Notes: a model not told the origin generated them from the sequence alone. A DNA stretch of 51,765 nucleotides from a candidate division FCPU426 bacterium (GCA_030038835.1 JASHQZ010000055.1:1-51765), one strand, 5' to 3'; numbered from the stretch's first letter, positions 17,882-51,765 are shown. Numbers and translations are program-made.

Positions 17882-17943
17882 AAGTTTCAGGGAGGTTGGT
17901 ATTGCACCGATTTCCTTCAATCCTTCAAAAGGAGAAGTGGAGC

Positions 17944-18558
17944 ATGCTGCTCAACCTGGATGAGCTGACGCCGGGCCAACTGGACGCATTGAAGGAAGTG
18001 GGAAATATTGGCGCCGGGCACGGTGCCACGGCTCTTTCGCAGCTTTTAGGGAAGAAAATCTTCATTACCGTGCCAAAGGCCTCCATCCTCCCCTTGTCGG
18101 AAGTCCCTCGGCTGGTGGGCGATCCCAACACGCTGGTGGCCGGCCTGACCCTGAACATCCTGGGCGACGCAACGGGCAAAATCATCCTTCTTTTTCCACG
18201 CGAATCGGCGCTACACCTGGGGGACATGCTCTTGAAGCAGCCCGTGGGAACCAGCAAGATCCTCACCGAAATGGGTCACTCGGCCATCAAGGAAGCAGGC
18301 AATATCCTAACCGGCGCTTACTTGAGTGCCTTAAACGAGTTCTTGGGAATGCTGCTTCTCATTTCCGTCCCCACCCTAGTGTTCGACATGGCGGGAGCCC
18401 TGCTTTCCATCATCACCCAGGGTATGGAGGAATCCCTCAAGGTCATCTGCATCGAAACGAAATTCAGCGACGATCACGAAGAAATCGGAGGTTATTTCAT
18501 CTTGGTCCCGGACGCCGTTTCACTCCGCGCCATATTCCAAGCCATCAAAGTGAAGTAA
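17944..18558 (+). CDS. cheC: CheC-family phosphatase with both consensus sites intact
   Basis: DALKEVGN-x22-P and SAIKEAGN-x22-P both fit [DS]xxxExxN(x22)P. The ATG at 17944 is preferred over the upstream in-frame TTG at 17896. Confidence 0.85.
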   Translation: MLLNLDELTPGQLDALKEVGNIGAGHGATALSQLLGKKIFITVPKASILPLSEVPRLVGDPNTLVAGLTLNILGDATGKIILLFPRESALHLGDMLLKQPVGTSKILTEMGHSAIKEAGNILTGAYLSALNEFLGMLLLISVPTLVFDMAGALLSIITQGMEESLKVICIETKFSDDHEEIGGYFILVPDAVSLRAIFQAIKVK

Positions 18559-35066: not shown

Positions 35067-36128
35067 TTGGTGAGCAAGGGCATTTCTTATTCTCTGGAAG
35101 ACTTGGCCGGGAAGATAGGAGCAACCTTCTCGGGTGAGGGCGCCCTTCATCTCACGGGGGTGGCGCCCTTGGATTCGGCTCGGGAAGGTGATCTCACTTT
35201 CCTTACCAATCCCCGTTACGCCAAGTTCGCGGAAAGGACCCGAGCTTCCGCTATTTTGTGTGAAAAGGCGATCCCGAAGGTCGCCAAATCTTTCTTGTTG
35301 ACTTCTAATCCCTATGCGGCCCTGGCCAAGGTCATTCCCCTTTTTTTCCCCCCGAAGACACCGATACCTGGCATTCGAAAGGGCGCCTGGGTGGATACAA
35401 CTGCTTCGGTTCATCCCCAAGCCTGCGTGGCGGACGGCGCTACAGTGGCGGCGGGAGCCCGCGTGGGGGCTCGAAGTGTTCTTTATCCCGGCGTCTATGT
35501 GGGTGAGGACGCCGTGGTGGGCGAGGACTGCTTGCTTTACCCCAACGTGGCCCTCCGGGAGAATTGCATCCTGGGTGACCGGGTGATTTTGCAGCCGGGC
35601 GCGGTGGTGGGATCGGACGGCTTCGGCTTTGCTCCGGAGGGCGAGGAGTACCGCAAAATTCCACAAGTCGGGAACGTGGTCATCGAGGACGACGTGGAGC
35701 TGGGGGCCAATACCTGCGTGGATCGGGCTGTCTTGGGAACCACCCGCATCGGCAAGGGAACAAAACTCGACAATCTCATCCAGGTCGGCCACAACGTGGT
35801 GATCGGCCACCATACCGTTGTGGCCGCCTTGAGCGGCATTTCAGGTTCCACCCAAGTGGGTAACCACGTGGTCATGGGGGGCCAGGTGGGACTGGCGGGC
35901 CACCTCAGGATCGGTGACTACGTGACCTTGGCCACTCGCACTGGCGTCATGGAGGATATTCCGGAGAAAGGTGTTTACTGGGGGTCCCCCTCGTCTGAAA
36001 TGTCCGTCGAGATGAAAAACGTGGCCGCTTACCGCCAATTGCCAGAACTCCTGAAGCGCGTCCGAAACCTGGAGAAATCCTTGGAAAAACTCCAGGGGCT
36101 CCAGGGAAAGGAACCCGATGGGAAATAA
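35067..36128 (+). CDS. lpxD: UDP-3-O-acylglucosamine N-acyltransferase
   Basis: N-terminus LEDLAGKIGA..SG plus a long hexapeptide-repeat left-handed beta-helix (IGDRVILQPGAVVGSDGFGF ... GNVVIEDDVELGANT). Confidence 0.92.
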   Translation: MVSKGISYSLEDLAGKIGATFSGEGALHLTGVAPLDSAREGDLTFLTNPRYAKFAERTRASAILCEKAIPKVAKSFLLTSNPYAALAKVIPLFFPPKTPIPGIRKGAWVDTTASVHPQACVADGATVAAGARVGARSVLYPGVYVGEDAVVGEDCLLYPNVALRENCILGDRVILQPGAVVGSDGFGFAPEGEEYRKIPQVGNVVIEDDVELGANTCVDRAVLGTTRIGKGTKLDNLIQVGHNVVIGHHTVVAALSGISGSTQVGNHVVMGGQVGLAGHLRIGDYVTLATRTGVMEDIPEKGVYWGSPSSEMSVEMKNVAAYRQLPELLKRVRNLEKSLEKLQGLQGKEPDGK

Positions 36129-37452
36129 AACGCCGTTTCCCAGCCAAGCCACGATCGCTAAGCCCTTCACCTTTGAAGGTGTGGGTCTGCACACGGGTAA
36201 AAAATGTCGTGTGACGGTTTCCCCCCTGCCGGATGGATCGGGCCTACGGTTTTTCAGGTCCGATCTAAAAGTGGAAATCCCAATTTCTCCAGAAGCGGTT
36301 TTCAGCACCCAACGAGGAACAACCTTGGCTGGAGGGGAAAACGCCGTTATTCATACTATTGAACATTTCCTGGCTACGGTCCAAGGGCTTGGAGTCACCA
36401 ACCTTCAAGTGGAGATGGACTCAGAGGAAATGCCTATCCTGGACGGTAGTGCCGCCCCTTTTTGCGAATTGTTCAAAAAAGCGGGAATCCTGCTGCAAAA
36501 AGGCAGCGTGGACCCCTTGCGGGTCACCGAGCCCATCGAACTGAATTTTGGGGAAACCGTCCTAAAGGCCGAGCCTGCGGAAGGTCTCTACTTGGAAGTC
36601 ACGACCTCCTTTCCCTATCCCGGCTTGGAAAACCAAAAAAAGACCTTTCGGCTGCCCGAACAGAGTTTTGAGGATGAATTGGCTAGGGCCCGGACTTTTT
36701 GTTTTGAGGAGGAGGTGGAACAGCTTCGGCGCCAGGGGCTCATCAAAGGGGGCCACTTGGATTGCGCTATCGTCTTGGGGAAGGTCGGCATCCTGAACGG
36801 CCCCTTCCGGTATGAGGACGAGATCGTCCGTCACAAGACGCTGGATTTGTTGGGCGATCTGACGCTCTTGAACCGTCCCTTGTGGGCGAAAGTTACCGTG
36901 AAGAAAGCCGGACACCGTTACCACGTGGAATTGGCGAAGGCCATCCTGAGACAGTCCGGAAAAGGGAACCGGAAAATCAAACCTGCCTTAAAAGAGGGGG
37001 CTATGCTCGATATTACGGAAATCCAGAAAATCCTTCCCCACCGGTACCCTTTTTTGTTGGTGGACCGAATCTTGGAATTGGAGCCCAACAAGAGGGTGGT
37101 GGCGATCAAAAACGTGACGATGAACGAACCGTTTTTCCAAGGACATTTTCCCGATAACCCCATCATGCCTGGGGTCCTTGTCATTGAGGCCATGGCTCAA
37201 GCAAGCGGAGGCGCTTTGCTCACCGAAAACGGAAGTAAAGGAAAAGGCCTCTATTTAGCTGGAATCGAAAACGCGAGGTTCCGCAGGCCCATCCGTCCGG
37301 GCGATCAAATCCGTTTTGAGGTGGATGTCATTTTGCGCCGCTCCAACATCGCGAAAGTGCGCGGGAAAGCCTTTGTGGATGGACAATTGGCTGTCGAAGC
37401 CGAGATTACCAGCGCCATTGTGGATAGGACATCTGGAGAGGGGGAAAAATGA
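36118..37452 (+). CDS. lpxC-fabZ: Bifunctional UDP-3-O-acyl-GlcNAc deacetylase / 3-hydroxyacyl-ACP dehydratase (LpxC-FabZ fusion)
   Basis: The N-terminal ~290 aa are LpxC (GVGLHTGK, TIEHFLA, MPILDGSAAPF, HKTLDLLGDL). The C-terminal ~150 aa are FabZ (ILPHRYPFLLVDRI, FFQGHFPDNPIMPGVLVIEAMAQ). Confidence 0.92.
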   Translation: MGNKTPFPSQATIAKPFTFEGVGLHTGKKCRVTVSPLPDGSGLRFFRSDLKVEIPISPEAVFSTQRGTTLAGGENAVIHTIEHFLATVQGLGVTNLQVEMDSEEMPILDGSAAPFCELFKKAGILLQKGSVDPLRVTEPIELNFGETVLKAEPAEGLYLEVTTSFPYPGLENQKKTFRLPEQSFEDELARARTFCFEEEVEQLRRQGLIKGGHLDCAIVLGKVGILNGPFRYEDEIVRHKTLDLLGDLTLLNRPLWAKVTVKKAGHRYHVELAKAILRQSGKGNRKIKPALKEGAMLDITEIQKILPHRYPFLLVDRILELEPNKRVVAIKNVTMNEPFFQGHFPDNPIMPGVLVIEAMAQASGGALLTENGSKGKGLYLAGIENARFRRPIRPGDQIRFEVDVILRRSNIAKVRGKAFVDGQLAVEAEITSAIVDRTSGEGEK

Positions 37453-38241: not shown

Positions 38242-39051
38242 ATGGCCTCCTCGCCCGTGATCGGCTTGATTGCCGGGGGAGGGGAGCTTCCCATCCTTTT
38301 TGCCCACCAAGCCCAGCGCCGGGGATTGTCGGTCCGAACGGTCGCCCTCCGGGGCTCAGCCCCAATTTCGATTGAAAGAAATAGCGACGCTGTCACATGG
38401 ATTTCCATCGGCCAACTCGGCTCCCTGATCCGTTTTTTCAAGGGTCAGGGTGTCCGCCGGGCGGTCATGCACGGTAAAGTGCAGCATTCCCAGTTGTTCA
38501 GGAGCCTCCGCCTGGACTGGAAGGCCCTATCGCTTTGGAGCCGCTTAAAGGACCGATCGGGCGAAGCCTTGCTCAAGGCCGTGGCAGGTGAGTTGGGACA
38601 TGCGGGCGTGGAACTTTTGGATGGGCGGACTTTCATGGAGGAATCAGTTATCCGGAAGGGCTGGGTGACCCGAATCCGCGCCAAGAGCGATTCCAACCCT
38701 TCCATCGCTTATGGTCTCAAGCGAGCCCGCGTACTGGCTCGGCTGGGAATCGGCCAAACCCTGGTGGTCAAGGGTAATGCGGTGGTGGCTGTGGAAGGTA
38801 TGGAAGGCACAGACGAGGCCATACGCCGCGCCGGGCGTTGGGCCGGCCTTGGAACTATCGCAGTAAAAGTATCAAGCCCATCGCAAGACTGGCGCTTCGA
38901 TATTCCTACACTTGGACCTCGCACCCTTCAGAGCCTTATCTGGGCCAAAGCCAGGGGGATCGTCGTGGAGGGAGGGAAAAGCTTTCTGATTGACCGAGAG
39001 AAAACTCTTGCCTTGGCTGAAAAAAACGGGATCTTCATTCTTGCGGTTTAA
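38242..39051 (+). CDS. lpxI: LpxI (DUF1009) UDP-2,3-diacylglucosamine pyrophosphatase
   Basis: IGLIAGGGELP N-terminus and GQTLVVKGNAVVAVEGMEGTDEAIRRAG in the C-terminal domain. It sits directly after lpxA. Confidence 0.8.
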   Translation: MASSPVIGLIAGGGELPILFAHQAQRRGLSVRTVALRGSAPISIERNSDAVTWISIGQLGSLIRFFKGQGVRRAVMHGKVQHSQLFRSLRLDWKALSLWSRLKDRSGEALLKAVAGELGHAGVELLDGRTFMEESVIRKGWVTRIRAKSDSNPSIAYGLKRARVLARLGIGQTLVVKGNAVVAVEGMEGTDEAIRRAGRWAGLGTIAVKVSSPSQDWRFDIPTLGPRTLQSLIWAKARGIVVEGGKSFLIDREKTLALAEKNGIFILAV

Positions 39052-39194: not shown

Positions 39195-40283
39195 TTACCG
39201 GTTTTTCCAAACCAACAAGATGGGCCCGATAACCGCGAAGATCACGTTCGCGATCCAAACAGACAGGAAGGGGGACACCAGACCCGATTCCCCCAAGTGC
39301 TGGCCAATTTGCATGCCGCCGATGTAGGCGAAGGCCACCAGTGTGCAGATGCCAACGCTCGCGATGACACCGGTGTACTTGCGCATGCTCCAGCCCCAAG
39401 GAACCCCCAAGATGACCATAATGACGCAGCCGAAGGGCGAAGCGAACTTCAGGTAGAGGGTTACAAGCTCCTTGTGGTAGTCCGAGCCGTTGTGTTTGAG
39501 CTGGCGGATATAGGACGTCAGTTCCACCATGTTCAGCTCGCCGGGTTCTTTTTGGGCCTTAAGGAAATCGGCCGGCTTTTCAGGCAGGGGAATGGCCGCA
39601 CGGTCGAAGGCCTGGTCCGATATCTCCGCCCCTGTGTCGTCGAATGCCCTCTGATAACCACTGAAAAAAATCCATTGGCTGTTTTCGTACCGGGCCACCC
39701 GGGCGTCCAACCTGCTCTTGAGGCGCATATCCGAATCGAATTCCAGCACTAGGATGTCGGTCATGGTGTTGGTGGAGCCGTCGAAGGATCCGATGTGGTA
39801 GATCTCCCCCTCCGTTCCAACCATAGAGATGTTCTGGCGGGACAGGTTTGCCGATTCCTCCGGGGAGTGGGTGATTTCCACCGTCTTCGTATGGCGCTTG
39901 CGGGCCTCTGCCGTTGGCACAACCAATTCGCTGAATAGGAGGCTTAAGACGCAGATGGCAGCGCCGGCGAAAAAGAGGGGAACGGCGATGCGATAGATAT
40001 CCACTCCTCCGGACCGCATGGCGATTAGTTCGTTGCCCCGTGAAAGAGTGCCCATGGAAAAAAGCACGCCGAACAGGCAGGCAATGGGGAGGATTTGTAC
40101 CATGAAGCTTGGCAAGAAAAAAAAGAAGTATTTCAGGGTCACTCCGATCCCAGGCTTGAACTCCATGAGCAAATGCATATCGTTGAAGACTTGCACGACG
40201 AGTACGATGACGCTGAACCCGGCCAAGGCCAGAACGAAGGGCTTGGTGAACTCGCCGAGGATATACCTCGTGAGGACTTTCAT
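39195..40283 (-). CDS. lptG: LPS export permease, YjgP/YjgQ family (LptG position)
   Basis: MKVLTRYILGEF N-terminus, 6 TM helices and a periplasmic insert. The ATG at 40283 overlaps the upstream stop (ATGA). The longer track ORF to 40412 is rejected. Confidence 0.85.
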   Translation of the reverse strand: MKVLTRYILGEFTKPFVLALAGFSVIVLVVQVFNDMHLLMEFKPGIGVTLKYFFFFLPSFMVQILPIACLFGVLFSMGTLSRGNELIAMRSGGVDIYRIAVPLFFAGAAICVLSLLFSELVVPTAEARKRHTKTVEITHSPEESANLSRQNISMVGTEGEIYHIGSFDGSTNTMTDILVLEFDSDMRLKSRLDARVARYENSQWIFFSGYQRAFDDTGAEISDQAFDRAAIPLPEKPADFLKAQKEPGELNMVELTSYIRQLKHNGSDYHKELVTLYLKFASPFGCVIMVILGVPWGWSMRKYTGVIASVGICTLVAFAYIGGMQIGQHLGESGLVSPFLSVWIANVIFAVIGPILLVWKNR

Positions 40284-41440
40284 CGGCGGCTTTCCTTTCG
40301 GGAGCCTCGGGTGCGAACTGCGGAAGAAAAATGACGGAAGGCTGAATGCTCCATGATCACCAGGTAATAAAGCAGGCTGCCCAAAACCGCTAGGATGATG
40401 TCCGCGCCCCATAGTCCGGTCACGGGATTAAGAGTGCCTTGGTTACTGAGTGTCTCCCCCAGGACGAACATAAAATAATAAACGAAGATGAGGGCCAGCC
40501 CAAGAACAAAGCCCATGAAGCCCTTTGATTTGGTCCAAAGTCCCAAGGGGGCGCAAAACCAGGACAGCACTAGGCAGGCGAAAGGCAGGGACAACCTTTT
40601 CTGGTATTCGGACCTCAAGCGGTTGAGCCGTCCCGGGTCCATTTCTTGGGGGATAGCCCGCGAAAGTTCATCCAGGTCCATTTCCTCGTAGTCCTTTTTC
40701 ACGTCCGCCAGCCGGGACAGTTGGTTCTCGAAATTAAGGCGGATGATGTAGCGGTCGAAGTAAAGCTGGTTGTAAGTGTTGTAATTATTGTTGTCCCAGC
40801 TCATGACGCCGTTGTTGAGGTGAAAGAAAACCTGATAGGTGTTGGGGTCGTTGACGAGCGTGCCCGTTTTTGCCACGGTCGTCTGGAGGGGGGCTTTGGG
40901 CGACCAGTAATTGAAAGCCTTGATGTTGGAGAAAGATCCGTCGGGTTCCTGATGGTCGATTAAGAATCGATAATTTTCGAACTGATCGATCCAGACCTTC
41001 TCCCGGATGGCCAAATTCGCCTGCTTCTGGAGGATTTGGAATTGGGTTTCCTTGAATAGGAAGTTGGCGGCGGGCAGCACTTTGTCGTTGAAGTACATCA
41101 TGGCACCAGTCATCAAGAGGCCTAAAGCCAGCACGGGCGCAACCAAATGGAATAAATGGATTCCGCTGCTTTTAAAAGCGGTCACCTCCATGTCGGAGCT
41201 CAACCGGCCGAAAGCCAGAAGGGTTCCTACCATCATGGACATGGGGATGGTCATGGAAAGGATGAAGGGAACCAGGCTCAGGTACAGCACCAGGGTTTGG
41301 AAAAGGGGGACTTTTTTGTTGAGCACCAGGTCCAGCATCAGGAATATCTTGTTGGTCATGAAGAGGCAGGTGAGAAGGCCTACACACACCAGGAAAGAAG
41401 GGACCATTTCGGTGAGGACATAGCGGTAAACGGTTTTCAA
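40280..41440 (-). CDS. lptF: LPS export permease, YjgP/YjgQ family (LptF position)
   Basis: MKTVYRYVLTEM N-terminus with the same topology. It is the first gene of the minus-strand pair. Confidence 0.85.
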   Translation of the reverse strand: MKTVYRYVLTEMVPSFLVCVGLLTCLFMTNKIFLMLDLVLNKKVPLFQTLVLYLSLVPFILSMTIPMSMMVGTLLAFGRLSSDMEVTAFKSSGIHLFHLVAPVLALGLLMTGAMMYFNDKVLPAANFLFKETQFQILQKQANLAIREKVWIDQFENYRFLIDHQEPDGSFSNIKAFNYWSPKAPLQTTVAKTGTLVNDPNTYQVFFHLNNGVMSWDNNNYNTYNQLYFDRYIIRLNFENQLSRLADVKKDYEEMDLDELSRAIPQEMDPGRLNRLRSEYQKRLSLPFACLVLSWFCAPLGLWTKSKGFMGFVLGLALIFVYYFMFVLGETLSNQGTLNPVTGLWGADIILAVLGSLLYYLVIMEHSAFRHFSSAVRTRGSRKESRR

Positions 41441-42018
41441 TTCGCATCCTTGAAAGGCAGGTTACAGCCCATGGTCGACAAGTTCACAGCAAGACCTTCC
41501 TTCCGCTTTTTGACTCGGCTGTCAGCTGTGAAATGTGACCCGTCAGCTGCTTTCAGGGGGCAAAGTATAACATGGGTTTTCCCGCCAAAATACCGGCGTT
41601 CGGCCCACTCACGCCCGTTCAGTGACCTTTTTCGGCTTTTCGGGTATTCGCAACCCTTTTGCCCCCCGTTTGGGATATTTTTAACGAAGGGCGATTAGGA
41701 CTGGCTTGAGCGGCAAGACAACCGCAGCCGATCCTGATCTTGGGCACCACGGCCCTGCTCTAAGGCGGGGCCGTGTTCTTCTAAACATAAAAATTCCCCG
41801 TTTTGAAAAATGGGGCGAGGGGGCTGGAGTCTTTTTCGATAACCGAGTCCAAAATCCCCTGCCATCCCCCGGGATGGTTTGCCGACCAAGGGGCCTCAGG
41901 GTTTTATGAAGGGAGCGGTTCCGTTGGCCATGAAAGGACCCTCCACTTGCAAAAGGTGAAAATAAGCCGTTGGGATTATTCCAGTGTTGGTATCATCTCC
42001 GGAAAGAAGAGCCTGGCT

Positions 42019-42038
42019 CCGGGGAATACCCCGGTTTT
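42019..42038 (+). terminator. Terminator/attenuator-like hairpin CCGGGG-AATA-CCCCGG followed by TTTT
   Basis: A GC-only 6-bp stem, a 4-nt loop and a T4 run, 47 nt upstream of the preferred kinase start. Confidence 0.3.
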
Positions 42039-42084
42039 GGCGAAAACTGCCGCTGACGGATCGGCACAACCGGTGAAATGGCGG

Positions 42085-43218
42085 ATGAACCAACTCTGGA
42101 AAAAAATCTTCTTCCTTGATTTCGAGAAGTCCTTCTTTTCCTCCTGTGCCAAGCTCCTTTTTGTTTGGAACCCCCTTTGGACCCTTTTGGTCAGTTTTGT
42201 ATTGAGCAATTGGACCTTATCTCTTTTCCGCTGGGGCTGGAACTTTTTTGAGGCAAGCTGTGCCGTTTTGATAGGGTTGGTCCTTGTAAAAGCCTATCTT
42301 TTTGCGGAAAGAGCTTGGGCCCAATGGTCGGCTAAAAACCTTCCACGACACGGATTGGCCTGGCATCTTCTGTTTGTGGCTTTCGTAGCTCCTTTAGGGG
42401 TTTACATTGCGGATCATCTGATATTAGTTTTCATCAACTCTATTTACCCTGGCGAACCTATACCCTTCGAGTTTCATTGGCGGTTTTACGGCACCGAGAT
42501 TTCCTGGATTTGGTCCCTTTTTTTGGTTTGTTTCCTTTTCTTTTCCTTCTTGGATCTGCGGGACGCAGCCCGTTTAAGCCAAATCCGGGCCGAAGAGCTT
42601 GAAAAGGAAAGACTGCAGGCGGCCCTGGACAAACTAAAAGACCAGATGAATCCCCACTTCCTTTTCAATACCCTCAACACGGTGGCGGCCCTAATCCCCG
42701 CCGATCCCGGCAAGGCCGAGGAAGTGGTAGTGAAACTTTCGACCCTCTTCCAGGCAGTTTTGGAAGCCACCCGAGAATCCAACCATTCCCTAGTCAAAGA
42801 ATTGGAGTTCTGCAGGACCTACTTGGACATTGAAAAGGCTCGGTTTGGTCCACGGCTTTCCTCTTCTATTGAGATCGGGCAGGGGTTGGACCCCGCCCAG
42901 GTCCTGGTGCCCGTCCTTTTGCTTCAACCCCTAGTGGAAAACGCGGTGAAACACGGCCTTTCTTCCCGTGCGGCGGGGGGAAGGATCTGGATCCGGGCGG
43001 TGTTGGCCGGCGGTCGTTTGGAACTGGTTGTGGAGGACGATGGCGTGGGGTTTGGGAATTCCCCTTACGCGGGTTCGGGAACGGCCTTGGAGAATTGCCG
43101 CAAGAGGCTGGAATTGGGGTTTGGAAAAGAAGGACGGCTGGAAATAACACTCCGTCCAGGGGGTGGGACGAAAATCGGGTTGTCGATGCCGCTCTTAGCG
43201 GCAAATGGTAACGAATAA
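42085..43218 (+). CDS. LytS/YehU-type sensor histidine kinase (polytopic sensor, His_kinase plus HATPase_c)
   Basis: NPHFLFNTLNTVAALI (H box of the LytS family) and LLQPLVENAVKHG (N box), preceded by 4-6 TM helices. The ATG at 42085 is preferred because the 94-aa upstream extension from 41803 has no membrane or domain character. Confidence 0.8.
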   Translation: MNQLWKKIFFLDFEKSFFSSCAKLLFVWNPLWTLLVSFVLSNWTLSLFRWGWNFFEASCAVLIGLVLVKAYLFAERAWAQWSAKNLPRHGLAWHLLFVAFVAPLGVYIADHLILVFINSIYPGEPIPFEFHWRFYGTEISWIWSLFLVCFLFFSFLDLRDAARLSQIRAEELEKERLQAALDKLKDQMNPHFLFNTLNTVAALIPADPGKAEEVVVKLSTLFQAVLEATRESNHSLVKELEFCRTYLDIEKARFGPRLSSSIEIGQGLDPAQVLVPVLLLQPLVENAVKHGLSSRAAGGRIWIRAVLAGGRLELVVEDDGVGFGNSPYAGSGTALENCRKRLELGFGKEGRLEITLRPGGGTKIGLSMPLLAANGNE

Positions 43219-43240
43219 TTTATGGGTTTAGGGGGTCTTC

Positions 43241-43987
43241 ATGATTAAGGCTTTGATCGTCGATGACGAGTCTCCCGCCAGGTCGCGGCTAGCCCGATTG
43301 CTTTCCGCCTTCCCGGACTTGGAGGTAACCGGGGAGGCCGCCAACGGGTTGGAGGCCCTGCAGTCCGCCCAAACCCTCCATCCAGACCTGGTGTTTTTGG
43401 ACATTGAAATGCCCGAGCTGAACGGTCTGGAAGTGGCGGAAGCCTGGGGCGGGAAGGGGCCAGCGGTGGTTTTCGTGACGGCCTACAGTGAGCATGCCTT
43501 GAGGGCATTTGAGCTTTCGGCCCTGGATTACCTGGTGAAACCCGTGTCACCCGAGAGGCTAGCCGAAACCATGGACCGCCTGAAACGGCGTAAGGAATCC
43601 GGTTCCCGTGCTCCCCTCCAAAAGCTCATCGAACGCATGGAGGAGGGCCGCGCCCGCAGGCGCATGGCGGTCAAGTGCGGGTCCAAGTACCGCGTTTTCG
43701 AACCATCCCAGGTTTCGGCCATCGTGGCCCGCGAGCACTACGCTGCCTTGCTAGTGGACGGCCAGGAATTGTTATCCGACGATAGCCTGGACCAACTGGC
43801 CCAAAGGCTGGACCCCAACCGTTTCTTGAGGATTCACCGCAGCGCCATCATTAATCTGGATTACCTCAGGGAACTGGAACATGAGGGTGACCGCAAGTAC
43901 ACGGCGGTTTTGTCCGATCCGGCCAAAACACGCCTACCGGTAAGCCGCGAAAGGCTGGAGGATTTGAGGAAAACACTGGGATTGTAG
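43241..43987 (+). CDS. LytR/AlgR-family response regulator (REC plus LytTR DNA-binding domain)
   Basis: REC domain (ALIVDDE, LVFLDIEMPELNG, KP). LytTR domain (VSAIVAREHYAALLVDGQELL ... FLRIHRSAIINL). Confidence 0.9.
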   Translation: MIKALIVDDESPARSRLARLLSAFPDLEVTGEAANGLEALQSAQTLHPDLVFLDIEMPELNGLEVAEAWGGKGPAVVFVTAYSEHALRAFELSALDYLVKPVSPERLAETMDRLKRRKESGSRAPLQKLIERMEEGRARRRMAVKCGSKYRVFEPSQVSAIVAREHYAALLVDGQELLSDDSLDQLAQRLDPNRFLRIHRSAIINLDYLRELEHEGDRKYTAVLSDPAKTRLPVSRERLEDLRKTLGL

Positions 43988-44028
43988 AAAGATTGAGCAC
44001 TCTAAATTGGATTTTATGGATGGTTTAA

Positions 44029-47000
44029 ATGTTGGCTGGTGGACTTCTTCTTCAACGCTTTCAACAACTGGCCCTTCTGGGTTTGGGGATCGTTTTTTTT
44101 ATCTTTCCGCTCCGTGGGGCAAACGCCCAAACAACAACTTCGGCCACGCCGGCTGTTTCGTCTTCCCCGGCAGCCACTTCCGCTTCCGATTTGATGGTAA
44201 GTCCTGAAGAGGAAATCAAGATACTGGACGCCATTGACGCCCAGTCCAATAGCCTTAACGCCCAAACCACGCCGTTGGCCACGTCTTCCATCTCCGGGTC
44301 CGCCTCAACCGCCGCCCCGGCAACGGCGGCCGGAGGCGGAGGGGCGTCAATTTTAGCGCCGCTTTCCGGAGCCGCAGCTCCGGTCAACTATCCTCCCCCG
44401 GCAGCTCCAACCGGTTTGAGCGTGCTAATTCTTAAGGAAGGGGTTTACCTTTCCTGGGACGCGGCGCCGGCGGGCTCCCCCGTCACGGCCTACGACGTTT
44501 ACCGCTCCACCACACCGGGTGAGGGATACCTGCGCGTTAACACCCAACCCGTCCCAGCCCCGTATTTCCTGGACGGTTCCCAAACCAGCCTTTCTCCCCC
44601 GCGAAACGGCGAGGATTATTTCTACGTGGTGACCGCCAGCGATTCCTACGGCAAAACTAGTCCTGATTCAGATGAATTGACGGTTACACCCGATGGCATG
44701 GAAATTGTCCAGTCTGAAGCAACGGCGCCGACCCCCAGCCCAACGCCCGAGGCGGAAAAAGTCCTGGCTATTCCGGAAAAGAATCTGATCAACCTCCAGT
44801 TGCCGGCGGACACGTCGCTTTCCATCCAGGGTTACAAGAAAATCGAGGCGGATTTGTCCTTCCAGGATTTCTACGACCGGCCCGTGGAGAATGGCGTTCC
44901 GCAGCAGCAGGACACCACGCTTATCAATCAGGAGCTAGTAGTCGACTTGGTGGGCAAGGTGGGGAAAAACGTGGACGTGAACGTGGACTATAGCGACGTC
45001 AACCGGGCGGGAGGCGTGGACCAGACCAAGCAGGTCATTTCCATCACCTACCACGGCGATGAGGACAGTCCCGTCCAGGAGGTGGAATTCGGTGACCTGC
45101 AGCTGGTGCTCCCCAACACCCAGTTCGCGGGCTTCAGCAAGAACCTCTTCGGCCTCGAGGCCATGTTCAAGTTCGATAACTTTCACTTGACCACTTTTTT
45201 CGCCCAGACCCAGGGCATTTCGGCTACCAAGACCTTCACCGGCAACACCGTGCAAGTGGACAAGATGATCCAGGACATCCAGTATGTCCCGAACAAATAC
45301 TTTCTCATTACCCGTGAAAACCTGACCCCCACCACAAGCACATCGACCAATGGCGCCCTTCCCGCGCCCAATACGGAGCAGATCTGGGTGGACCAGGGGA
45401 CGGGCCAGATCAACCCCACTGGGCCCAATTTCGGAGGGCCCAACAATCTTTTTGCACATTGGTTGCCGGGACGGGACTACACCATCGACTACTCCACGGG
45501 TATCATCACCTTCATCACGGCCCTGCCCTCCACGGCCCGCATCGCCGTGGGATTCCAGAACCAAAACGGCCAATACCGGGGCTTGAACGCTTATAACAAT
45601 AGCAACACAGCGAATTTTCCCCAGAACGTGCCTTCCACTGACCTGTTCGTGCCGGACAATGGGGCGGTGGGGGTTACAGTTAGCGTCTCGAATCCAACCT
45701 TGAATCAAACAGGGAAATACCCGGGATTCCTGATCAAGGACAACAACAATTCCACCGGCTGGACATCGGCCAACGCCATTGCCTGCTCGCCCCTTTATCT
45801 GGTCAATTTTTTCAACCTGGGCACCGACAAGATCGTGCCCCCCCAGGACGACCCGGGTTTTCTTTTCCAAGTCATTTCCACCAACAATACGGTCCTTCAA
45901 ACCGGGCAGGGCGTCTCAACGGTGGGCTCTTCCACCCCCTGGGTCTACAACGTGGACCTGGACTTCAACTACCTAACGGTCATCAACGCCAATTTCCTGG
46001 CCTCGGCCGCGCCGACCTCCTTCTTATGGCCGGAACGGCCCTTCGCCAACCTGGACACCTCCGGCGGCTCCAGCTCCAGCGCCAACCCGCCGGACGTCTA
46101 CTGTCAGACCGTTGCGCCCACTAGCCAGTATACCGTCCATGTCCGCTACAAGACCCAGTCGAACAACTACTCGCTGGGCCAGTTCAACATCATCCAGGGA
46201 AGCGAGTCGGTGTATCTGGACGGCCGTCGCCTCCAGCGCAACGTGGACTACATGATCGACTACACCTCCGGCACCCTGGATTTCCCCAACAAGAGCATCC
46301 TCTCACCGGACAGCCAGATCGTGGTGACCTACGAGTACGCGCCCTTTGGCTCCACCGGCCAAAACAACATCCTGGGTGCCCGGGCCGAATACGACATTAC
46401 CGACAACTTCTTCATCGGCTCCACCTTCCTTGAGGACGACGCCCAGCAGCCCCTGGAGGTGCCGCAGATCGGTTCCACGCCCGACTCCCTCACCCTTTTC
46501 GACGCGGACACGCGCCTGGACCTGTCCCGGGATGACGTGAAATCCCTCACTGGCGTGATCCCCGGTCTTGAAGATTGGAAGCCTCCCTTGAGCGTCAAGC
46601 TCTCAGGGGAAGTCGCCCAAAGCTACTACAACCCCGACACCTACAACGCCGAGGGGGAAAACGGCGTCGCCATGATCGACAACATGCAGGGCATCGACAG
46701 CGCAACGGCCCTCTCAACGAACCAGACTTCCTGGCTGGTTTCCGCTCCCCCCGAGCCCGTGGGGTTTCTGGGCAACGTCACCTACGACGGGGGAGCGGAC
46801 GCCACCAATAATCGGGTCCGTTTCTACAACTCCGGCGCACCCAACTCCGTCATGGAGGTTTTTCAAACCATCGGCACGTCTAACACCACCGGCGGCTACA
46901 CCACGGTGCCCGCCTACGGCGGCAATGTTTATGCCCAAACCCAACAGGCCAACGATGCGGTACAGGTGTTGCAGTTTCCTTATTCGAACCTTACCAACCA

Positions 47001-50000
47001 GAGGTGGGCGGGGTTGAGGACGGTGATTTCCACGAACGGCGCCGATTTTTCCAACGTGACCTATTTCGACAGCTGGATTTACAACGACGGCAATCCCAAG
47101 TGGATCATGGTGGATTTCGGGGTTTTGAACGAAGACGTCAACGGCCAACCGAGCGTCGGCCCCGGCAGCCCTTTTTTTTCCGATCCCAACGAGTACGCCC
47201 AACCCCAGCTTCCAGCCAACCCTCTTTACGCCATTCCCACCTACTATTACCAGGGAAATCCCTGGTCAGCCGGCGGGAGTTCCACGGCCCCGATCACCTA
47301 TCTCCTTCCGGGGGAAGAGACCTCGCAGGAAGGGGTCAGCGTGGGGAGCGGAACCAGTTACGTCAACGAGAACATGAACGGCACCAATATTTTGAACAAC
47401 ACGGATGCCTATTACGAATACGGCATCGATGCCAATTGGACCGGATGGCATGAAGTGAAGATTCCCATCAACTTATCCGGTTCGGCAAGCCCGGGAACGA
47501 CCCCGGACGGAATCAGCTATTTCTTCAACACTGTAGGCGCGCCGACCCCCACTATTATCCGCTCGGCCCGCATCTGGATGACCGGTTCCAATTCCACGCC
47601 CATCAACGGCGACGTTTATTTCGAGAGCGTCAACTTCACCCAAAACCTTTGGGTCCTGCAGGTGGACCCCACGGCAAACGCCAGCCAGGGCGTGACGGTC
47701 AACCCCACCAAGTTCGACGTGGATTCCATCAGCCAGGCTGAGAACTCCAGTTTCGTGCCCACGCTCAACTTCGTGACCGTGCAGTCGGGCCAGGATCAGT
47801 CCGCTCTCCTATACCAGGAAAAGGCCCTGGAAATTACCTACAATCTTTCCTCGGCCGATTTCCAGCCCTCCGGCAACATCAACGGCACGCCCATTTATTA
47901 CGCCACCCGGCTCTTTAGCCAGGGGCTGGACCTCACCAACTTCCAGGACCTGCGGTTTGAACTTTACCTCAGGGCCTATCAGCCGGGGGACGTGCTTTTC
48001 CTGCGCGTAGGGAACGACCCGCAGGATTATTACCAGTTCAACATGCAGTTGAGCCAGGCCGCCGTTTCCTGCCTCAATACCTGGGGCACGGTGGACTTCC
48101 CCTTGAGCGGGTCGGCGGGCAATCGGCTCCAGGTGGGGACGCCTTTCATCAACCGCGTCACCAACATCAGCTTCGGGGTGGTCTCCCCCAACCCGCCCTC
48201 GGGTTTCACGGGCGACATGTGGATCATCAACCTGCACGCCGCCAACTCCGTCGTGCGCAGCGGCATGGCCCGCCGGGCCGACGCGGCCTTTGTCATCGGC
48301 GACGACGCCAAGAAGCCCTTTGCCACGATGAACCTGCGCTACGAGGAAGTGGACTCGGGCTTCACCCAAATGGACCAAACCAGCACCCATTTCCAGCATT
48401 CCACCCAGTTGGGGGCGGACTACACCTCCAGCGGGGTCTCCCTTTTTTCCCAGCCGCTGGTCACCCAGGCTTCCTATACCCACCAGGATCTCACCACCGA
48501 GTCCGCGCTCTTGGACAACCCTTATTACATTTCCTTGCCCAATACCCACAGCGACAACGCCATCGGCAGCATCAGCTATACCAAGGATCTGGGGTCCTCG
48601 TTCGGCCGCCTGACCTCCTTCCAGCTTTCCGGCAGCCTGAATGACCAAAACTCAACCTATCCCAACCAAGAATACCTCTCCCAACCCGGGGTGCAGGGTA
48701 ACAACCAAAACAACCAGGCTGTCTACACGGTGGCCTCCACCTACGACGCACCTGCGAAAATTTTCTTCCTGCCCATCGGGGCCAACCAGTTCACTGAAAG
48801 TTATTCCATGACCTACAACACCGAGGATTTCCTGGCCCCCAACTACGAGGGGCTGGCCAATTACGACCGCACCACCCGTACGCAGACCTACGGCTGGACC
48901 AACACCACGGAGCTCGTGAAGAACCTGGTTATCACTCCGGGATATACCTGGACCCTGACGGACGCGATGGGCAATACCAACTCGGCCGGGGTGCCGGTTT
49001 CGGTCTCCAGTTATTCGGTGACCTACATGCCCTTCCAGGAGCAGGAACAGCCCAAGGCTGGGCTGGTGTACCGGGGCATCTCAGGACTGACCCCCTCCGT
49101 GGCCTATACCGGAAGCAACAGCTACGACTGGGTCTCCTATTCCACCGGCCTGCAGTTCAACAGCGCCAACAATCTCGCCTTCACGGGCAACTTCACACCG
49201 AGCAGTTGGTTCGGTTTCCTCCAGAAGATCAACCCCACCTTGACCTATGGCCTCACCTATGCCGCTAATTCCACCATCCCCGGCTACCGCCAGGGGATGC
49301 TGAATTTGGACGAACAATGGGGCATTAACCCCGATTTCACCGACTCCCTTACCGCAAGCCAGTCGGAAACCAACCAGGTGACCGGCGACTTTAAGCTTTT
49401 CGACGTATGGGATTTCCGGCCTAACGCCTCTTGGACCAACCAGTTGAACCTTCTTTCCCAGGGCTCCAATCCAGCGCCCCAGTATGGTAAAACCATAGGG
49501 CTGACTACGGTGTACAATCGTAAAATCCTAACCTTGCCCCTGGTGGGCCTCACCGTGGACTCGGCCCAGTTCCAATATACCCACACGGACAGCACCCAGT
49601 ACGACAGCACTGTCCCGCCCAGCATCGACAATGAAACGGACAGCGATCTTTACGGTATCACCCTGCCTTACGACCTGGGCAAGGGCGCGGGCCAGGGCAA
49701 CATCCACCTCCAGCAAACCACGGGATACCAGAACGGCCTTTCCACCCTGAGCACCGGGGTCACCCAACTGGACCAACAGGCTTCCGTCGAGTATGACCAG
49801 CGGTTCAACCCCCACTTGGAGCTTCATGTTCCCCTCACCCACTGGGTCATCCGTATGGGCAATGACGTGGACCTGAAGGCCACATATTTCATGGAGTTCG
49901 TGAACAACCAGTCCAGCTACATCAACAACGAGCTCCAGACCCAAACGTACCGTGTTACAATCAACTGCCAGTACAATGCCCTCACGAACCTGCTGTTGGG

Positions 50001-50097
50001 CGTGGGCCTGACTAACACGTATTTCACCAACCAGCAGAACAACCAGTTGAACTATGTGCTGTGGATGGGAACCGTCTCGGCGGAAGCAAGATTCTAA
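44029..50097 (+). CDS. Giant (2022 aa) outer-membrane protein: signal peptide, low-complexity A/S/T region, FN3 domain, then a very large beta-rich body with blocks I recollect as SprA/Sov-like and a C-terminal beta-signal
   Basis: One uninterrupted ORF. The signal peptide ends at GANA-QT. The FN3 domain is APTGLSVLILKEGVYLSWDAAP..VTAYDVYRS. The block VDLVGKVGKNVDVNVDYSD...ISITYHGDEDSPVQEVEFGDLQLVLPNTQFAGFSKNLFGLEAMFKFDNFHLTTFFAQTQG resembles the SprA N-terminal repeat as I recall it (not computed). The composition is N/T/S/Q/Y/G-rich with alternating hydrophobicity. The last residues, VSAEARF, have hydrophobics at every second position and a terminal Phe. Confidence 0.7.
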   Translation: MLAGGLLLQRFQQLALLGLGIVFFIFPLRGANAQTTTSATPAVSSSPAATSASDLMVSPEEEIKILDAIDAQSNSLNAQTTPLATSSISGSASTAAPATAAGGGGASILAPLSGAAAPVNYPPPAAPTGLSVLILKEGVYLSWDAAPAGSPVTAYDVYRSTTPGEGYLRVNTQPVPAPYFLDGSQTSLSPPRNGEDYFYVVTASDSYGKTSPDSDELTVTPDGMEIVQSEATAPTPSPTPEAEKVLAIPEKNLINLQLPADTSLSIQGYKKIEADLSFQDFYDRPVENGVPQQQDTTLINQELVVDLVGKVGKNVDVNVDYSDVNRAGGVDQTKQVISITYHGDEDSPVQEVEFGDLQLVLPNTQFAGFSKNLFGLEAMFKFDNFHLTTFFAQTQGISATKTFTGNTVQVDKMIQDIQYVPNKYFLITRENLTPTTSTSTNGALPAPNTEQIWVDQGTGQINPTGPNFGGPNNLFAHWLPGRDYTIDYSTGIITFITALPSTARIAVGFQNQNGQYRGLNAYNNSNTANFPQNVPSTDLFVPDNGAVGVTVSVSNPTLNQTGKYPGFLIKDNNNSTGWTSANAIACSPLYLVNFFNLGTDKIVPPQDDPGFLFQVISTNNTVLQTGQGVSTVGSSTPWVYNVDLDFNYLTVINANFLASAAPTSFLWPERPFANLDTSGGSSSSANPPDVYCQTVAPTSQYTVHVRYKTQSNNYSLGQFNIIQGSESVYLDGRRLQRNVDYMIDYTSGTLDFPNKSILSPDSQIVVTYEYAPFGSTGQNNILGARAEYDITDNFFIGSTFLEDDAQQPLEVPQIGSTPDSLTLFDADTRLDLSRDDVKSLTGVIPGLEDWKPPLSVKLSGEVAQSYYNPDTYNAEGENGVAMIDNMQGIDSATALSTNQTSWLVSAPPEPVGFLGNVTYDGGADATNNRVRFYNSGAPNSVMEVFQTIGTSNTTGGYTTVPAYGGNVYAQTQQANDAVQVLQFPYSNLTNQRWAGLRTVISTNGADFSNVTYFDSWIYNDGNPKWIMVDFGVLNEDVNGQPSVGPGSPFFSDPNEYAQPQLPANPLYAIPTYYYQGNPWSAGGSSTAPITYLLPGEETSQEGVSVGSGTSYVNENMNGTNILNNTDAYYEYGIDANWTGWHEVKIPINLSGSASPGTTPDGISYFFNTVGAPTPTIIRSARIWMTGSNSTPINGDVYFESVNFTQNLWVLQVDPTANASQGVTVNPTKFDVDSISQAENSSFVPTLNFVTVQSGQDQSALLYQEKALEITYNLSSADFQPSGNINGTPIYYATRLFSQGLDLTNFQDLRFELYLRAYQPGDVLFLRVGNDPQDYYQFNMQLSQAAVSCLNTWGTVDFPLSGSAGNRLQVGTPFINRVTNISFGVVSPNPPSGFTGDMWIINLHAANSVVRSGMARRADAAFVIGDDAKKPFATMNLRYEEVDSGFTQMDQTSTHFQHSTQLGADYTSSGVSLFSQPLVTQASYTHQDLTTESALLDNPYYISLPNTHSDNAIGSISYTKDLGSSFGRLTSFQLSGSLNDQNSTYPNQEYLSQPGVQGNNQNNQAVYTVASTYDAPAKIFFLPIGANQFTESYSMTYNTEDFLAPNYEGLANYDRTTRTQTYGWTNTTELVKNLVITPGYTWTLTDAMGNTNSAGVPVSVSSYSVTYMPFQEQEQPKAGLVYRGISGLTPSVAYTGSNSYDWVSYSTGLQFNSANNLAFTGNFTPSSWFGFLQKINPTLTYGLTYAANSTIPGYRQGMLNLDEQWGINPDFTDSLTASQSETNQVTGDFKLFDVWDFRPNASWTNQLNLLSQGSNPAPQYGKTIGLTTVYNRKILTLPLVGLTVDSAQFQYTHTDSTQYDSTVPPSIDNETDSDLYGITLPYDLGKGAGQGNIHLQQTTGYQNGLSTLSTGVTQLDQQASVEYDQRFNPHLELHVPLTHWVIRMGNDVDLKATYFMEFVNNQSSYINNELQTQTYRVTINCQYNALTNLLLGVGLTNTYFTNQQNNQLNYVLWMGTVSAEARF

Positions 50098-50099
50098 CC

Positions 50100-51765
50100 A
50101 TGAAACCCAACAAAAGCTCACAGTCGACGGTTGGCAGTAGGTGGCCACGTCTTTTCAGGCGATCCCTGTCGCCTGCTGACTGCGGACTTTTAGCCCTTCT
50201 CTTTTTAGGGGTTTCCACACTGGTTTTCGCGCAGCCGCCCGTGCCTTCGGGGCTTTCCGTCATCGCCCCCTACGATGGGGAAGTGAACCTGGTATGGACT
50301 CCAGACGTCTCGGAAACACCGGCGGTAACGGCTTATCTCCTCAGCCGGCAAGAACTCAATGTGCCGAACACGCCCACCCCCACCGGTACCCTGACGCCCA
50401 CCACGTGCACACCCCAACCCCTGGCCACCGTGCTTTTGTCCTCCATGCCCGGCCCCGGAACGCCCGTTTACCAGGATTTGCAGGTGACCGACGGCCTGGA
50501 TTACCTCTACCAAGTGGCGGGTATTGATTCGGGCGGGGTACCGGGGGGAGCCTCTTCCGTTACAGCCGCTCCTTATTTAGGTCCTGTGGCCATCCAGCCC
50601 GTAACCGTCCAAAACATTCATTCCAATGCCTTGGATCTTTCCTGGGGAGTTCCCGCCTCCAGCTATCCGATTTCTTTTTATCAAGTCTATCTTTTCAAGT
50701 ACCTCACAGCGACTCCCACACCTAATCCTCCCAACACCGCGACTTTTACCCCAATCGGTACCTGGAATACACCTTCCCCTACCTTCACCCCCACTTTCCC
50801 CCAAACTCCTGTCCCAGCCTCCACGGTTTTAAGCGCCATGCCCTTGGCCACAGTTTTTGGAACCGCCTACAGCGATACCACGGCCAATTCCTCGGGCGCG
50901 GCGGCTTTTTATTACGTGGTGATGGCCACGGACAGCCAGGGCCACTTGGGTGCCCAACCCACTTACGCTAGCAACCCGGACCTGCCCATCAACATGTCAC
51001 CTCCCGGGCCACCCACGCTTACCGCCTTGGTGACGCTGACCCCCACGCCCCCCGTTATTGGGCAGAACGGTTACGGCGCAAGGCTCATCTGGAACTCTTC
51101 GCTTGGCTCGGAAGGGGTAACGGCTTACGAAATACTGCAGAACAACACCCCCATTGCCACCGTCCCCTACCAGGCCGCCACGCCCACGATGACCTACGAT
51201 GATTCCACCCTGCCTGCGGGAAACAACGGCAATCTCATCACCGTTTACAACGTGGTGGCCGTGAACACTTATGGGACCGGAACCTCCAATACCGTGGCCG
51301 TCACCCTAAACGCGGCCGTGGAGTCGGAGCCGATCACGGTGACGCCCAATGCCACCACCAACGCCGTCACCCTCACATGGAACCCTGCCACCCCTGGAAC
51401 CTACGGCCTGGCCGGCTACCAGCTTTATAAGAGCCCTTTCGGGGTGCCCGCGATCAATCCTACTCCCATCCCGGCCGGGAGCCCCACGGCCACTGTCACG
51501 CCTACCCCCTTCGCCACCATCTTTACCAACCCCTCCGTGACGGCCGTTTTGACATGGGTGGATACCCCCATCGTCAACCACATGAACTATTGGGTGCAAC
51601 CCGTGGACCTGACTGGCCATGGAGGGTGGTTAAATGCGGCCTCTCCACCCGCCTTAAACTTGGCCCCCACGCCGCCTTCCAGCGTGGGTGTCGCCAATCC
51701 GGTGGGGAACAACCAGATCGCGGTGACATGGGCGCCGGGAGGCCCGGGGTTTTACGGAACGCAGT
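50100..51765 (+). CDS. Secreted multi-FN3 repeat protein, 3'-truncated by the window edge
   Basis: The ATG is 2 nt after the giant gene stop. The frame stays open for all 555 codons to the window end, which is why the ORF track does not list it. The signal peptide is LLALLFLGVSTLVFAQ. At least 5 FN3-like modules are present (LSVIAPYDGEVNLVWTP..VTAYLL; ALDLSWGVP..ISFYQVY; ARLIWNSS..VTAYEIL; AVTLTWNP..LAGYQLY; QIAVTWAP). Confidence 0.8.
   Translation, partial: MKPNKSSQSTVGSRWPRLFRRSLSPADCGLLALLFLGVSTLVFAQPPVPSGLSVIAPYDGEVNLVWTPDVSETPAVTAYLLSRQELNVPNTPTPTGTLTPTTCTPQPLATVLLSSMPGPGTPVYQDLQVTDGLDYLYQVAGIDSGGVPGGASSVTAAPYLGPVAIQPVTVQNIHSNALDLSWGVPASSYPISFYQVYLFKYLTATPTPNPPNTATFTPIGTWNTPSPTFTPTFPQTPVPASTVLSAMPLATVFGTAYSDTTANSSGAAAFYYVVMATDSQGHLGAQPTYASNPDLPINMSPPGPPTLTALVTLTPTPPVIGQNGYGARLIWNSSLGSEGVTAYEILQNNTPIATVPYQAATPTMTYDDSTLPAGNNGNLITVYNVVAVNTYGTGTSNTVAVTLNAAVESEPITVTPNATTNAVTLTWNPATPGTYGLAGYQLYKSPFGVPAINPTPIPAGSPTATVTPTPFATIFTNPSVTAVLTWVDTPIVNHMNYWVQPVDLTGHGGWLNAASPPALNLAPTPPSSVGVANPVGNNQIAVTWAPGGPGFYGTQ

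Follow-up and report, generated by a model that had tools for sequence, protein, structure and literature searches.

The last part of a 51,765-nucleotide (nt) stretch of DNA from an uncultured soil bacterium of candidate division FCPU426, referred to here as the window, encodes what is best explained, at a probability of roughly 0.6, as a LytTR-regulated secretion module. Its components would be a SprA-type translocon of the secretion system known as type IX (T9SS), a probable cargo protein built of fibronectin type III (FN3) modules, and a two-component system that would control the expression of both. Four genes lie on the plus strand between 42085 and 51765: those for a histidine kinase, a LytTR response regulator, a giant SprA-like protein, and an FN3-array protein that runs past the end of the window (Table 1). 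A preliminary description of the window had proposed these four co-oriented genes with spacers of 22, 41 and 2 nt, and open reading frame (ORF) calls confirm both the coordinates and the spacers. It had also suggested that the spacing reflects one transcription unit, or direct control of the giant gene by the LytTR regulator, and that the genes are a candidate regulated surface or secretion module, a proposal that is supported, at the level of sequence, by the tight spacing, the lack of an internal terminator, and operator-like repeats upstream of the kinase gene.

The proposed mechanism begins with an event in the crown clade of FCPU426, where an insertion would have placed genes for a kinase with four transmembrane (TM) segments and for a LytTR regulator after the promoter region and ahead of the translocon gene, and an ancestral TATAAT-type promoter would have been exchanged for an activator-dependent promoter that bears repeats. 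The phosphorylated regulator would bind these repeats and turn on its own operon. With the genes so closely spaced and free of intervening terminators, the same activation would also raise expression of translocon and cargo. The FN3 protein would then be exported by the Sec pathway, cross the outer membrane via the adjacent translocon, and end up exposed at the cell surface, where it would act as an adhesin or form part of a surface layer.

The giant protein and its FN3 partner

Evidence that the giant protein belongs to the SprA/Sov family came from profile comparisons and from a structural model. The protein scores 202.1 bits against the NCBIfam equivalog TIGR04189, a borderline match in three stretches, given a cut-off of 200. 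When a profile of 18 giant homologues was compared with the PDB, it matched Flavobacterium johnsoniae SprA (6h3i) with an E-value of 1e-30. An hhalign comparison aligned 1152 columns (giant residues 156-1399) to a 2527-residue protein that bears the SprA_N domain (E 7e-39, ~25% identity); precomputed matches to this domain (PF14349) are found only in the giant homologues P0029, P0030 and P0040. Sub-threshold matches to PF09343 and to a phage tail-tube family on giant residues 698-772 lie inside the region covered by the SprA model and were set aside.

An AlphaFold2 model of giant residues 823-2022, built with 16 sequences, describes a partial barrel with a mean predicted local distance difference test (pLDDT) score of 73.6, the last 630 residues forming ~26 long beta-strands. 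A Foldseek search of the PDB with this model returned 8gl6_A, 8gl8_A, 6h3i_A and 6h3j_A as the top four matches (E 4e-31 to 2e-26), and the next match had an E-value of 2e-6. The TM-score to SprA is only 0.40 because the model is partial, and identity to F. johnsoniae SprA in the structural alignment is 13%. Outside the modeled part, the N-terminal region consists of a signal peptide, a linker rich in Ser, Thr and Ala, and one FN3-like module at approximately residues 125-222. The SprA-like body ends in AEARF, and the C-terminal A-x-F is invariant among homologues. Judged by sequence and modeled fold, the giant protein is a divergent translocon of the SprA/Sov family. The family model, the PDB profile, the hhalign alignment and the Foldseek search all agree with the preliminary description, which had called it a SprA-like outer-membrane protein of 2022 residues, and they place it within a secretion family rather than among proteins unrelated to secretion.

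Only the first 555 codons of the FN3-array gene lie in the window, and the full gene was seen via its orthologues. An exact-match look-up gave no record of the giant protein, and the locus was extended through L001, from an FCPU426 metagenome-assembled genome, where the giant protein is 89% identical (related loci are cited here by L numbers). Full-length orthologues have ~1400-1640 residues and ~12 FN3 modules separated by linkers rich in Thr and Pro. In the window gene, a signal peptide is visible by inspection. The Pfam fn3 family matches the window fragment weakly (E 0.0025). A profile of 19 orthologues matches, over profile positions ~400-1190, the FN3 domains of titin, chitinase A1 and an Fn3-like protein with E-values from 1.5e-10 to 1e-5, which agrees with the secreted FN3-module protein that had been proposed.

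The C-terminal domain (CTD) of the FN3 protein lies beyond the end of the window and is known from the orthologues. It spans ~90 residues, ends at the last residue of all orthologues, and carries the pattern W-D-x-x-N-x-x-G-x-x-V-A-S-G-V-Y...K-V-A-V-I-K, with K-x-A-V-I-K as the C-terminal strand. Five full-length orthologues were tested, and each of them matches C-terminal regions of T9SS proteins, that of PorZ included, at its extreme C-terminus (E 3e-6 to 4e-4); three of the five also match PorU and TIGR04183. At an E-value of at most 0.01, the CTDs match PF13860 (FlgD_ig) in 26 of 26 cases and PF18962 (Por_Secre_tail) in 14 of 26. The modeled domain is an Ig-like sandwich, with pLDDT above 94 over the last 90 residues, that matches the CTD of PorZ (5m11), FlgD and the CTD of PorU. 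A profile search with the CTD gave 2368 matches, of which the 120 listed are all short fragments; among the matches listed, the NCBI names for domains of this kind from Endomicrobiia and Poribacteria read “T9SS type A sorting domain”.

A CTD-bearing protein is encoded next after the giant gene in 37 loci, including relatives that are just 25-27% identical. The junction between the giant and FN3 genes measures 2 nt in the window, and it is 0-3 nt or overlapping in many orthologous loci. Because the FN3 protein ends in an Ig-like domain that resembles a T9SS sorting domain, it is probably the cargo of the adjacent translocon.

The two-component system and its candidate operator

Pfam comparisons identify a His_kinase domain (PF06580) and a HATPase_c domain in the kinase, which has four hydrophobic TM segments connected by short loops only. 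Neither 5TMR_LYT nor GAF was found in the kinase with Pfam. By its domains, the kinase is a member of the LytS/YehU (HPK8-type) family, yet its sensor part is not LytS-like. The “polytopic LytS-type kinase” of the preliminary description is thus correct in family and in topology and incorrect as to the type of sensor. Because the kinase has short loops only, the stimulus to which it responds probably lies in or at the membrane. Its start had been placed at ATG 42085, a position that is a conserved Met or Val in 18 loci and that yields 377 residues, as in paralogous kinases; an in-frame upstream extension from TTG 41947 is kept in 16 of 17 loci, so the start is ambiguous.

The second gene had been described as encoding a LytTR regulator, and its product matches both Response_reg (PF00072, E 1.7e-21) and LytTR (PF04397, E 3.9e-20) in Pfam. 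It scores under the NCBIfam equivalog cut-offs for BtsR (162 vs 246) and LytR (124 vs 375). Orthologues of the regulator are 68-94% identical, and the closest regulators outside the clade that carries the kinase/regulator pair are 58-62% identical and encoded in operons of unrelated context. Paralogous operons consist of genes for a small secreted protein, a kinase of 377-378 residues and a regulator. At L087 and L089, these operons open with the gene (8397-8840 and 8368-8817, respectively) of a secreted protein of 147-149 residues, directly behind the same direct-repeat operator as is predicted for the window module, and these secreted proteins have no Pfam or NCBIfam family match.

The main argument that the regulator would control the translocon-containing operon is an architecture like that of LytTR operators. 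Alignment of the intergenic regions between lptG and the kinase gene from 18 loci revealed two 13-nt direct repeats with the consensus CCGTCCATTCGGG and a period of 21 bp. The half-site contains CCGTTCG, and the register of the repeats is conserved across those pair-bearing loci that were aligned or scanned. A hexamer resembling a -10 box, TATTTT, is found 44-46 nt downstream of the point at which the second half-site begins and would serve as part of the operon promoter; the distance from repeat to box is constant across loci, and the sequence between them varies. No conserved -35 box was seen at this operator promoter in the intergenic alignment, which suggests that the promoter is activator-dependent. 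A further motif, AGTATAACA, is conserved close to where lptG starts, whether or not a locus carries the pair, and its reverse complement holds TATACT, the probable -10 box of a divergent lptGF promoter.

Additional evidence for the operator came from a weight matrix that was built from 13 loci and scanned against 1.86 Mb of fetched sequence. The operator repeats are the top match of the window, with a score of 22.9, and the best match lies at the equivalent place in the held-out loci L015, L018, L020, L029, L030 and L033. Only three matches of at least 20 occur at other places in the 1.86 Mb. For the paralogous loci, each 20 kb long, the best matches (30.4 at L087 and 21.8 at L089) are found just upstream of their own operon. 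LytTR-type repeats had been thought worth seeking before both the kinase gene and the giant gene; they are present upstream of the former and not of the latter. No second operator was found before 44029, before 50100 or elsewhere in the window, where the only other match, at 14002-14035, is at background level. Given that the 41-nt spacer before the giant gene holds no repeats, any control of that gene would act through the operon promoter.

The repeats have a history of their own in loci without the pair. At L017 (9717-9771) and L028 (9723-9756), where the pair was lost, two or three repeats are kept directly before the giant gene, 44-45 nt upstream of a TAAAAT box. Such retention implies that the sites are relics or that a regulator encoded elsewhere acts on them in trans. 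In basal loci without the pair, the repeats are missing and a CTTATAATG box is found instead.

The four genes fit a single operon as judged from the DNA. The preliminary description had considered that strong internal promoters or terminators might separate them; neither a strong terminator nor a sigma-70 consensus promoter was found between the four genes. A terminator scan gave 12 weak hairpins, against 15.1 expected by chance, and the only strong terminator on the plus strand lies upstream of the kinase gene. A sigma-70 consensus scan of 41300-51765 found no match, and the promoter calls made here are calls from conservation alone. The spacer between the regulator and giant genes is short in the pair-bearing loci inspected, ranging from an overlap to ~110 nt.

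The strong terminator is part of a predicted structured RNA with two hairpins and a length of ~100 nt, which lies directly downstream of the LytTR-box promoter. It takes the form AGGGC, a long covarying hairpin, UUGGGCA, a terminator hairpin and a U-run. The minimum free energy of the window RNA is -52.4 kcal/mol (z -5.1), and the same architecture, with compensatory changes, recurs in L001, L002, L011, L012 and L030 (z -3.7 to -6.2). An Rfam search of 41400-44100 gave no match, and such a terminator was undetected in 12 other pair-bearing loci. Between the RNA and the kinase start lies a second promoter-like motif, which can be read as an extended -10 element (TGnTATnAT) or as part of an N-terminal extension of the kinase. 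Across loci, this motif, TTGnTAT(C/G)AT, varies only at positions that are not part of the extended -10 consensus, and the kinase frame through it is free of stops in 16 of 17 loci.

These observations give rise to the main rival explanation, because a terminator-bearing RNA follows the operator promoter in the subclade of the window. In that subclade, the operator promoter may make mainly a small RNA, or may be attenuated, and expression of the operon may then require read-through or the promoter-like motif at 41987-41996. Taken to its end, the ~100-nt RNA itself would be the output of the two-component system, the four genes would be expressed constitutively from 41987-41996, and the adjacency of the pair and the translocon gene would reflect a mere insertion site. 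The strong terminator right after the operator promoter, the matching hairpin and T-run in the five related loci, the strong structure and covariation of the RNA, and the retention of TTGnTAT(C/G)AT in nearly all pair-bearing loci with variation confined to non-consensus positions are all consistent with this explanation. It is nonetheless an unlikely one. The 12 other pair-bearing loci have no terminator at that place, the repeats of L017 and L028 sit directly before the giant gene with no RNA, and the repeats of L087 and L089 lie right before their own operon, as autoregulation predicts. Moreover, the extended -10 motif is in the kinase frame in 16 of 17 loci and so may be coding.

Conservation, synteny and surroundings of the module

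Synteny was tabulated over 86 loci by tblastn and ORF clustering. The four-gene block is present in 20 further FCPU426 loci from independent assemblies, with identity of the giant protein ranging from 89% down to ~50%. Whether the block is conserved in relatives had been raised in the preliminary description; it is kept in these loci, and deeper relatives have it without the kinase and regulator. With the window included, 21 distinct loci have the kinase/regulator pair in the interval from lptG to the giant gene. The pair is absent from L017 and L028, where the giant protein is 50-51% identical, from L005, L009, L022 and L034 (40-42%), and from all relatives at 25-29% identity. In a neighbor-joining tree of the giant protein, which carries no support values, the pair-bearing loci form one crown clade with L017 and L028 nested inside it, and the basal branches are without the pair. 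This pattern of sequences fits one gain and one loss of the pair.

Block conservation alone is weak evidence for a functional link, because the region from skp/lpxD to tpiA is syntenic throughout the clade. This wider synteny would be expected if the pair and the translocon gene were adjacent by descent only, in an outer-membrane-biogenesis region that rearranges slowly. That account has little to recommend it in view of three observations. The insertion of the pair fell precisely in the interval from promoter to translocon gene and came with a change of promoter type; the spacers of the inspected loci have remained short (an overlap at one extreme, ~110 nt at the other); and the repeats persisted before the translocon gene after the pair was lost.

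The giant protein has homologues in FCPU426, Firestonebacteria, Goldbacteria, Elusimicrobia and some metagenome-assembled genomes labeled Spirochaetia. In Poribacteria, the tblastn match to giant homologues covers the N-terminal half only, and these genes adjoin unrelated sugar and oxidoreductase genes, which makes the Poribacteria loci uninformative on the module. The deep core order is lptFG (divergent), the sprA-like gene, the gene for the CTD-bearing protein (FN3-CTD) and a comF-like gene. The lptF/lptG genes, which encode lipopolysaccharide (LPS) export permeases, are the deepest conserved neighbor of the sprA-like gene, adjoining the giant homologue in 43 loci from FCPU426, Firestonebacteria, Goldbacteria and Elusimicrobia, and a comF-like phosphoribosyltransferase gene follows in 36 loci. 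On this distribution of sequences, the pairing of putative translocon and putative cargo is old. The order lptF/lptG, sprA-like gene, comF-like gene is kept in L005-L009, L035-L038, L041, L042, L047, L048, L051, L055, L057 and L058; in L046, L049, L052 and L053, O-antigen-ligase-like and heptosyltransferase genes lie upstream of the sprA-like gene instead.

Some relatives outside the Fibrobacteres-Chlorobi-Bacteroidetes (FCB) superphylum carry further T9SS-like genes. PorV/PorQ-family genes lie beside the giant homologue in L050 (105 bits), L046 (108) and L049 (100), all above the NCBIfam cut-off of 90, and sub-threshold members lie beside it in the Firestonebacteria loci L042 and L048. Two of the relatives' PorV/PorQ-family genes are fused to an OmpA-like C-terminal domain, and those of Firestonebacteria adjoin genes for two further proteins with the same kind of CTD.

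The synteny also bears on a second rival explanation, in which the SprA-like barrel would no longer move cargo: it would serve the outer membrane as a structural or LPS-linked protein, with the FN3 protein bound to it as a cap or surface-layer anchor and not as a substrate. As this explanation would have it, lptFG and genes for lipid A or O-antigen remain syntenic with the barrel gene from phylum to phylum, and no motor genes are nearby; about two thirds of the giant protein aligns to SprA by sequence, and the one-to-one pairing of barrel and FN3 protein is more like a complex than like a general secretion system. Against it, SprA is the best structural match of the C-terminal part by more than 20 orders of magnitude, the extreme C-terminus of the partner is a T9SS-like sorting domain, and giant homologues in relatives are accompanied by PorV/PorQ-family genes and by additional CTD proteins. 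A purely structural role is improbable in light of these observations, more so than the small-RNA explanation.

Several observations weigh against a LytTR-regulated translocon with its cargo, which is still the preferred explanation. With respect to regulation, the window and five related loci carry a terminator between the operator promoter and the kinase gene, and the kinase/regulator pair is missing in deeper relatives, so the core function does not need the pair. With respect to the translocon, the giant protein is only 2 bits over the TIGR04189 cut-off and does not match Pfam SprA_N (PF14349) at an E-value of 0.1 or below. The sorting domain scores 14-16.5 bits against TIGR04183, with a cut-off of 23, and the closest orthologue scores 17.3 against PF18962 and 25 against PF13860, with a cut-off of 27 for both; all of these scores are under curated cut-offs. 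The Ig-like fold of the domain is generic and is supportive only. Finally, neither the window nor the 10-kb surroundings scanned in its clade yielded a GldK, GldL, GldM, GldN, PorU or PorV gene. A jackhmmer search of all fetched loci likewise found no PorV-like gene within 10 kb in that clade, and no further T9SS gene was found among the scanned window ORFs of at least 150 residues, which agrees with the earlier statement that the other T9SS genes are missing from the window. The remaining T9SS machinery would be encoded elsewhere in the genome. A more speculative possibility, on balance doubtful, is an ancestral and pared-down relative of the T9SS in FCPU426, Firestonebacteria, Goldbacteria and Elusimicrobia, in which the barrel would be tied to one FN3-CTD protein and to lptFG, maybe without GldKLMN/PorKLMN, and in which the LytTR switch of one clade would also drive a small RNA.

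Table 1. Coordinates of the four genes, upstream elements and related features (positions refer to the window unless a locus is named)
Feature	Position	Strand	Remarks
Kinase gene	42085-43218	+	377 aa; stop TAA 43216-43218
LytTR regulator gene	43241-43987	+	248 aa; 22 nt after kinase gene
Giant sprA-like ORF	44029-50097	+	2022 aa; 41 nt after regulator gene
FN3-array gene, 5' 555 codons	50100-51765	+	ATG 50100, 2 nt after giant stop; runs past window end
LytTR-box-like repeat	41611-41644	+	half-sites ACGCCCGTTCAGT and TCGGCTTTTCGGG; 34 bp; predicted operator
-10-like hexamer TATTTT	41676-41681	+	candidate box
Two-hairpin structured RNA	41686-41783	+	~100 nt; intrinsic terminator hairpin 41748-41775 plus T-run
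RNA homologues	L001 7640-7738; L002 7719-7819; L011 7565-7663; L012 7748-7842; L030 7631-7731		
Motif AAAATAAGCC..TTGGTATCAT	41958-41996	+	extended -10 or kinase N-terminal extension
Motif AGTATAACA	41564-41572	-	probable -10 box of lptGF promoter
lptF/lptG	39195-41440	-	PF03739, E 3e-82 and 4e-76; divergent from module
PorV/PorQ-family genes	L050 17384-18529; L046 287-2602; L049 1854-3908; L042 2090-3989; L048 2182-4078		beside giant homologues

Upstream of the module, the window holds an outer-membrane biogenesis cluster composed of skp, lpxD, lpxC-fabZ, lpxA and lpxI, followed by the divergent lptF/lptG. Within this lipid A cluster, LpxC-FabZ is a fusion (36118-37452) and LpxI is encoded at 38242-39051; in relatives, a PilZ-domain gene lies ahead of skp. 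A 180-residue ORF at 41156-41698 shares part of its length with lptG, on the other strand, and matches no family; it was therefore treated as spurious. Elsewhere in the window are dprA, topA and eno. Two further regions, 2039-4342 and 5892-18558, encode a T2SSE/PilT-like ATPase fused to TPR repeats and then a chemotaxis cluster (cheR, cheW, cheC, cheD, cheW, cheB, cheA and cheC/X), with genes for two large TPR proteins and one GGDEF protein interspersed among them. GC skew is -0.12 to -0.19 over 44001-50000, the region of the giant gene, versus mostly positive values in the rest of the window, and looks like a compositional signature of the giant gene rather than a replication feature.

Comparison with known systems

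The closest known counterparts of the giant protein are SprA of F. johnsoniae (6H3I, 6H3J and 8GL6) and Sov of Porphyromonas gingivalis. All are giant Sec-exported barrels of ~2000-2400 residues, and the window protein shares homology over ~1150 columns, passes TIGR04189, and has SprA as the best structural match of its C-terminal 1200 residues. It differs in its low identity (~25% by profile, 13% by structure), in being without Pfam SprA_N, and in its N-terminal FN3-like module. At the level of the system, the differences are the occurrence in phyla outside the FCB superphylum, the synteny with lptFG and the comF-like gene, and the fact that no GldKLMN/PorKLMN genes were seen near the window gene.

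T9SS cargo with a type A CTD includes adhesins and surface-layer proteins, such as SprB and RemA of F. johnsoniae and TfsA and TfsB of Tannerella. The FN3 protein is like these in being large and repetitive, in carrying a signal peptide and in ending with an Ig-like domain. One difference is that its CTD is nearer to FlgD-Ig (PF13860) than to PF18962 or TIGR04183. Another is that its gene has a fixed place right after that for the translocon; to our knowledge, a cargo gene directly after the translocon gene is not the rule in Bacteroidota.

The two-component system has parallels with AlgZ(FimS)/AlgR, BtsS/BtsR, YpdA/YpdB, LytS/LytR and AgrC/AgrA, which likewise combine PF06580 and HATPase_c in the kinase with a receiver and a LytTR domain in the regulator. 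The predicted paired direct repeats, two helical turns apart and just upstream of the -35 position of the system's own operon, are also as in LytTR systems. The AlgR site, CCGTTCGTC, also contains CCGTTCG, the core seen in the window half-site. The small structured RNA beside the operator promoter recalls agr P3-RNAIII. The window pair differs from these systems in scoring under every equivalog cut-off and in having a four-TM sensor without 5TMR_LYT or GAF. Its proposed output would also be different: a translocon and its cargo, not murein hydrolases, alginate, pyruvate transport or quorum sensing.

In P. gingivalis, the known system that regulates T9SS genes is PorX/PorY with SigP (PMC9757075). 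The proposed module would resemble that arrangement in that a two-component system is coupled to the expression of a T9SS component. PorX is a PglZ-domain regulator and not a LytTR protein; it is encoded apart from the translocon gene and acts through SigP. A full-text literature search found no paper that ties a LytTR regulator to a T9SS translocon, in keeping with the preliminary description, which knew of no described LytTR system linked to a SprA-like translocon plus an FN3 surface array.

According to reviews, bacteria outside the FCB superphylum have no T9SS genes (PMC11285876). A literature search found nothing relevant on T9SS in FCPU426, Elusimicrobia, Poribacteria or Endomicrobia. 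What is new here is a predicted T9SS-type translocon-cargo pair outside the FCB superphylum, and its putative coupling to a LytTR regulator with a candidate operator. A SprA-family translocon with its probable cargo in FCPU426 and neighboring phyla would widen the known range of the T9SS beyond FCB. For regulation, the module offers a concrete hypothesis that consists of a LytTR regulator, a predicted operator of 34 bp, a -10-like box at a constant distance from it and a candidate small RNA. For secretion, the pairing of a translocon with one cargo would provide a simple case in which to study how SprA-type translocons select and release their substrates.

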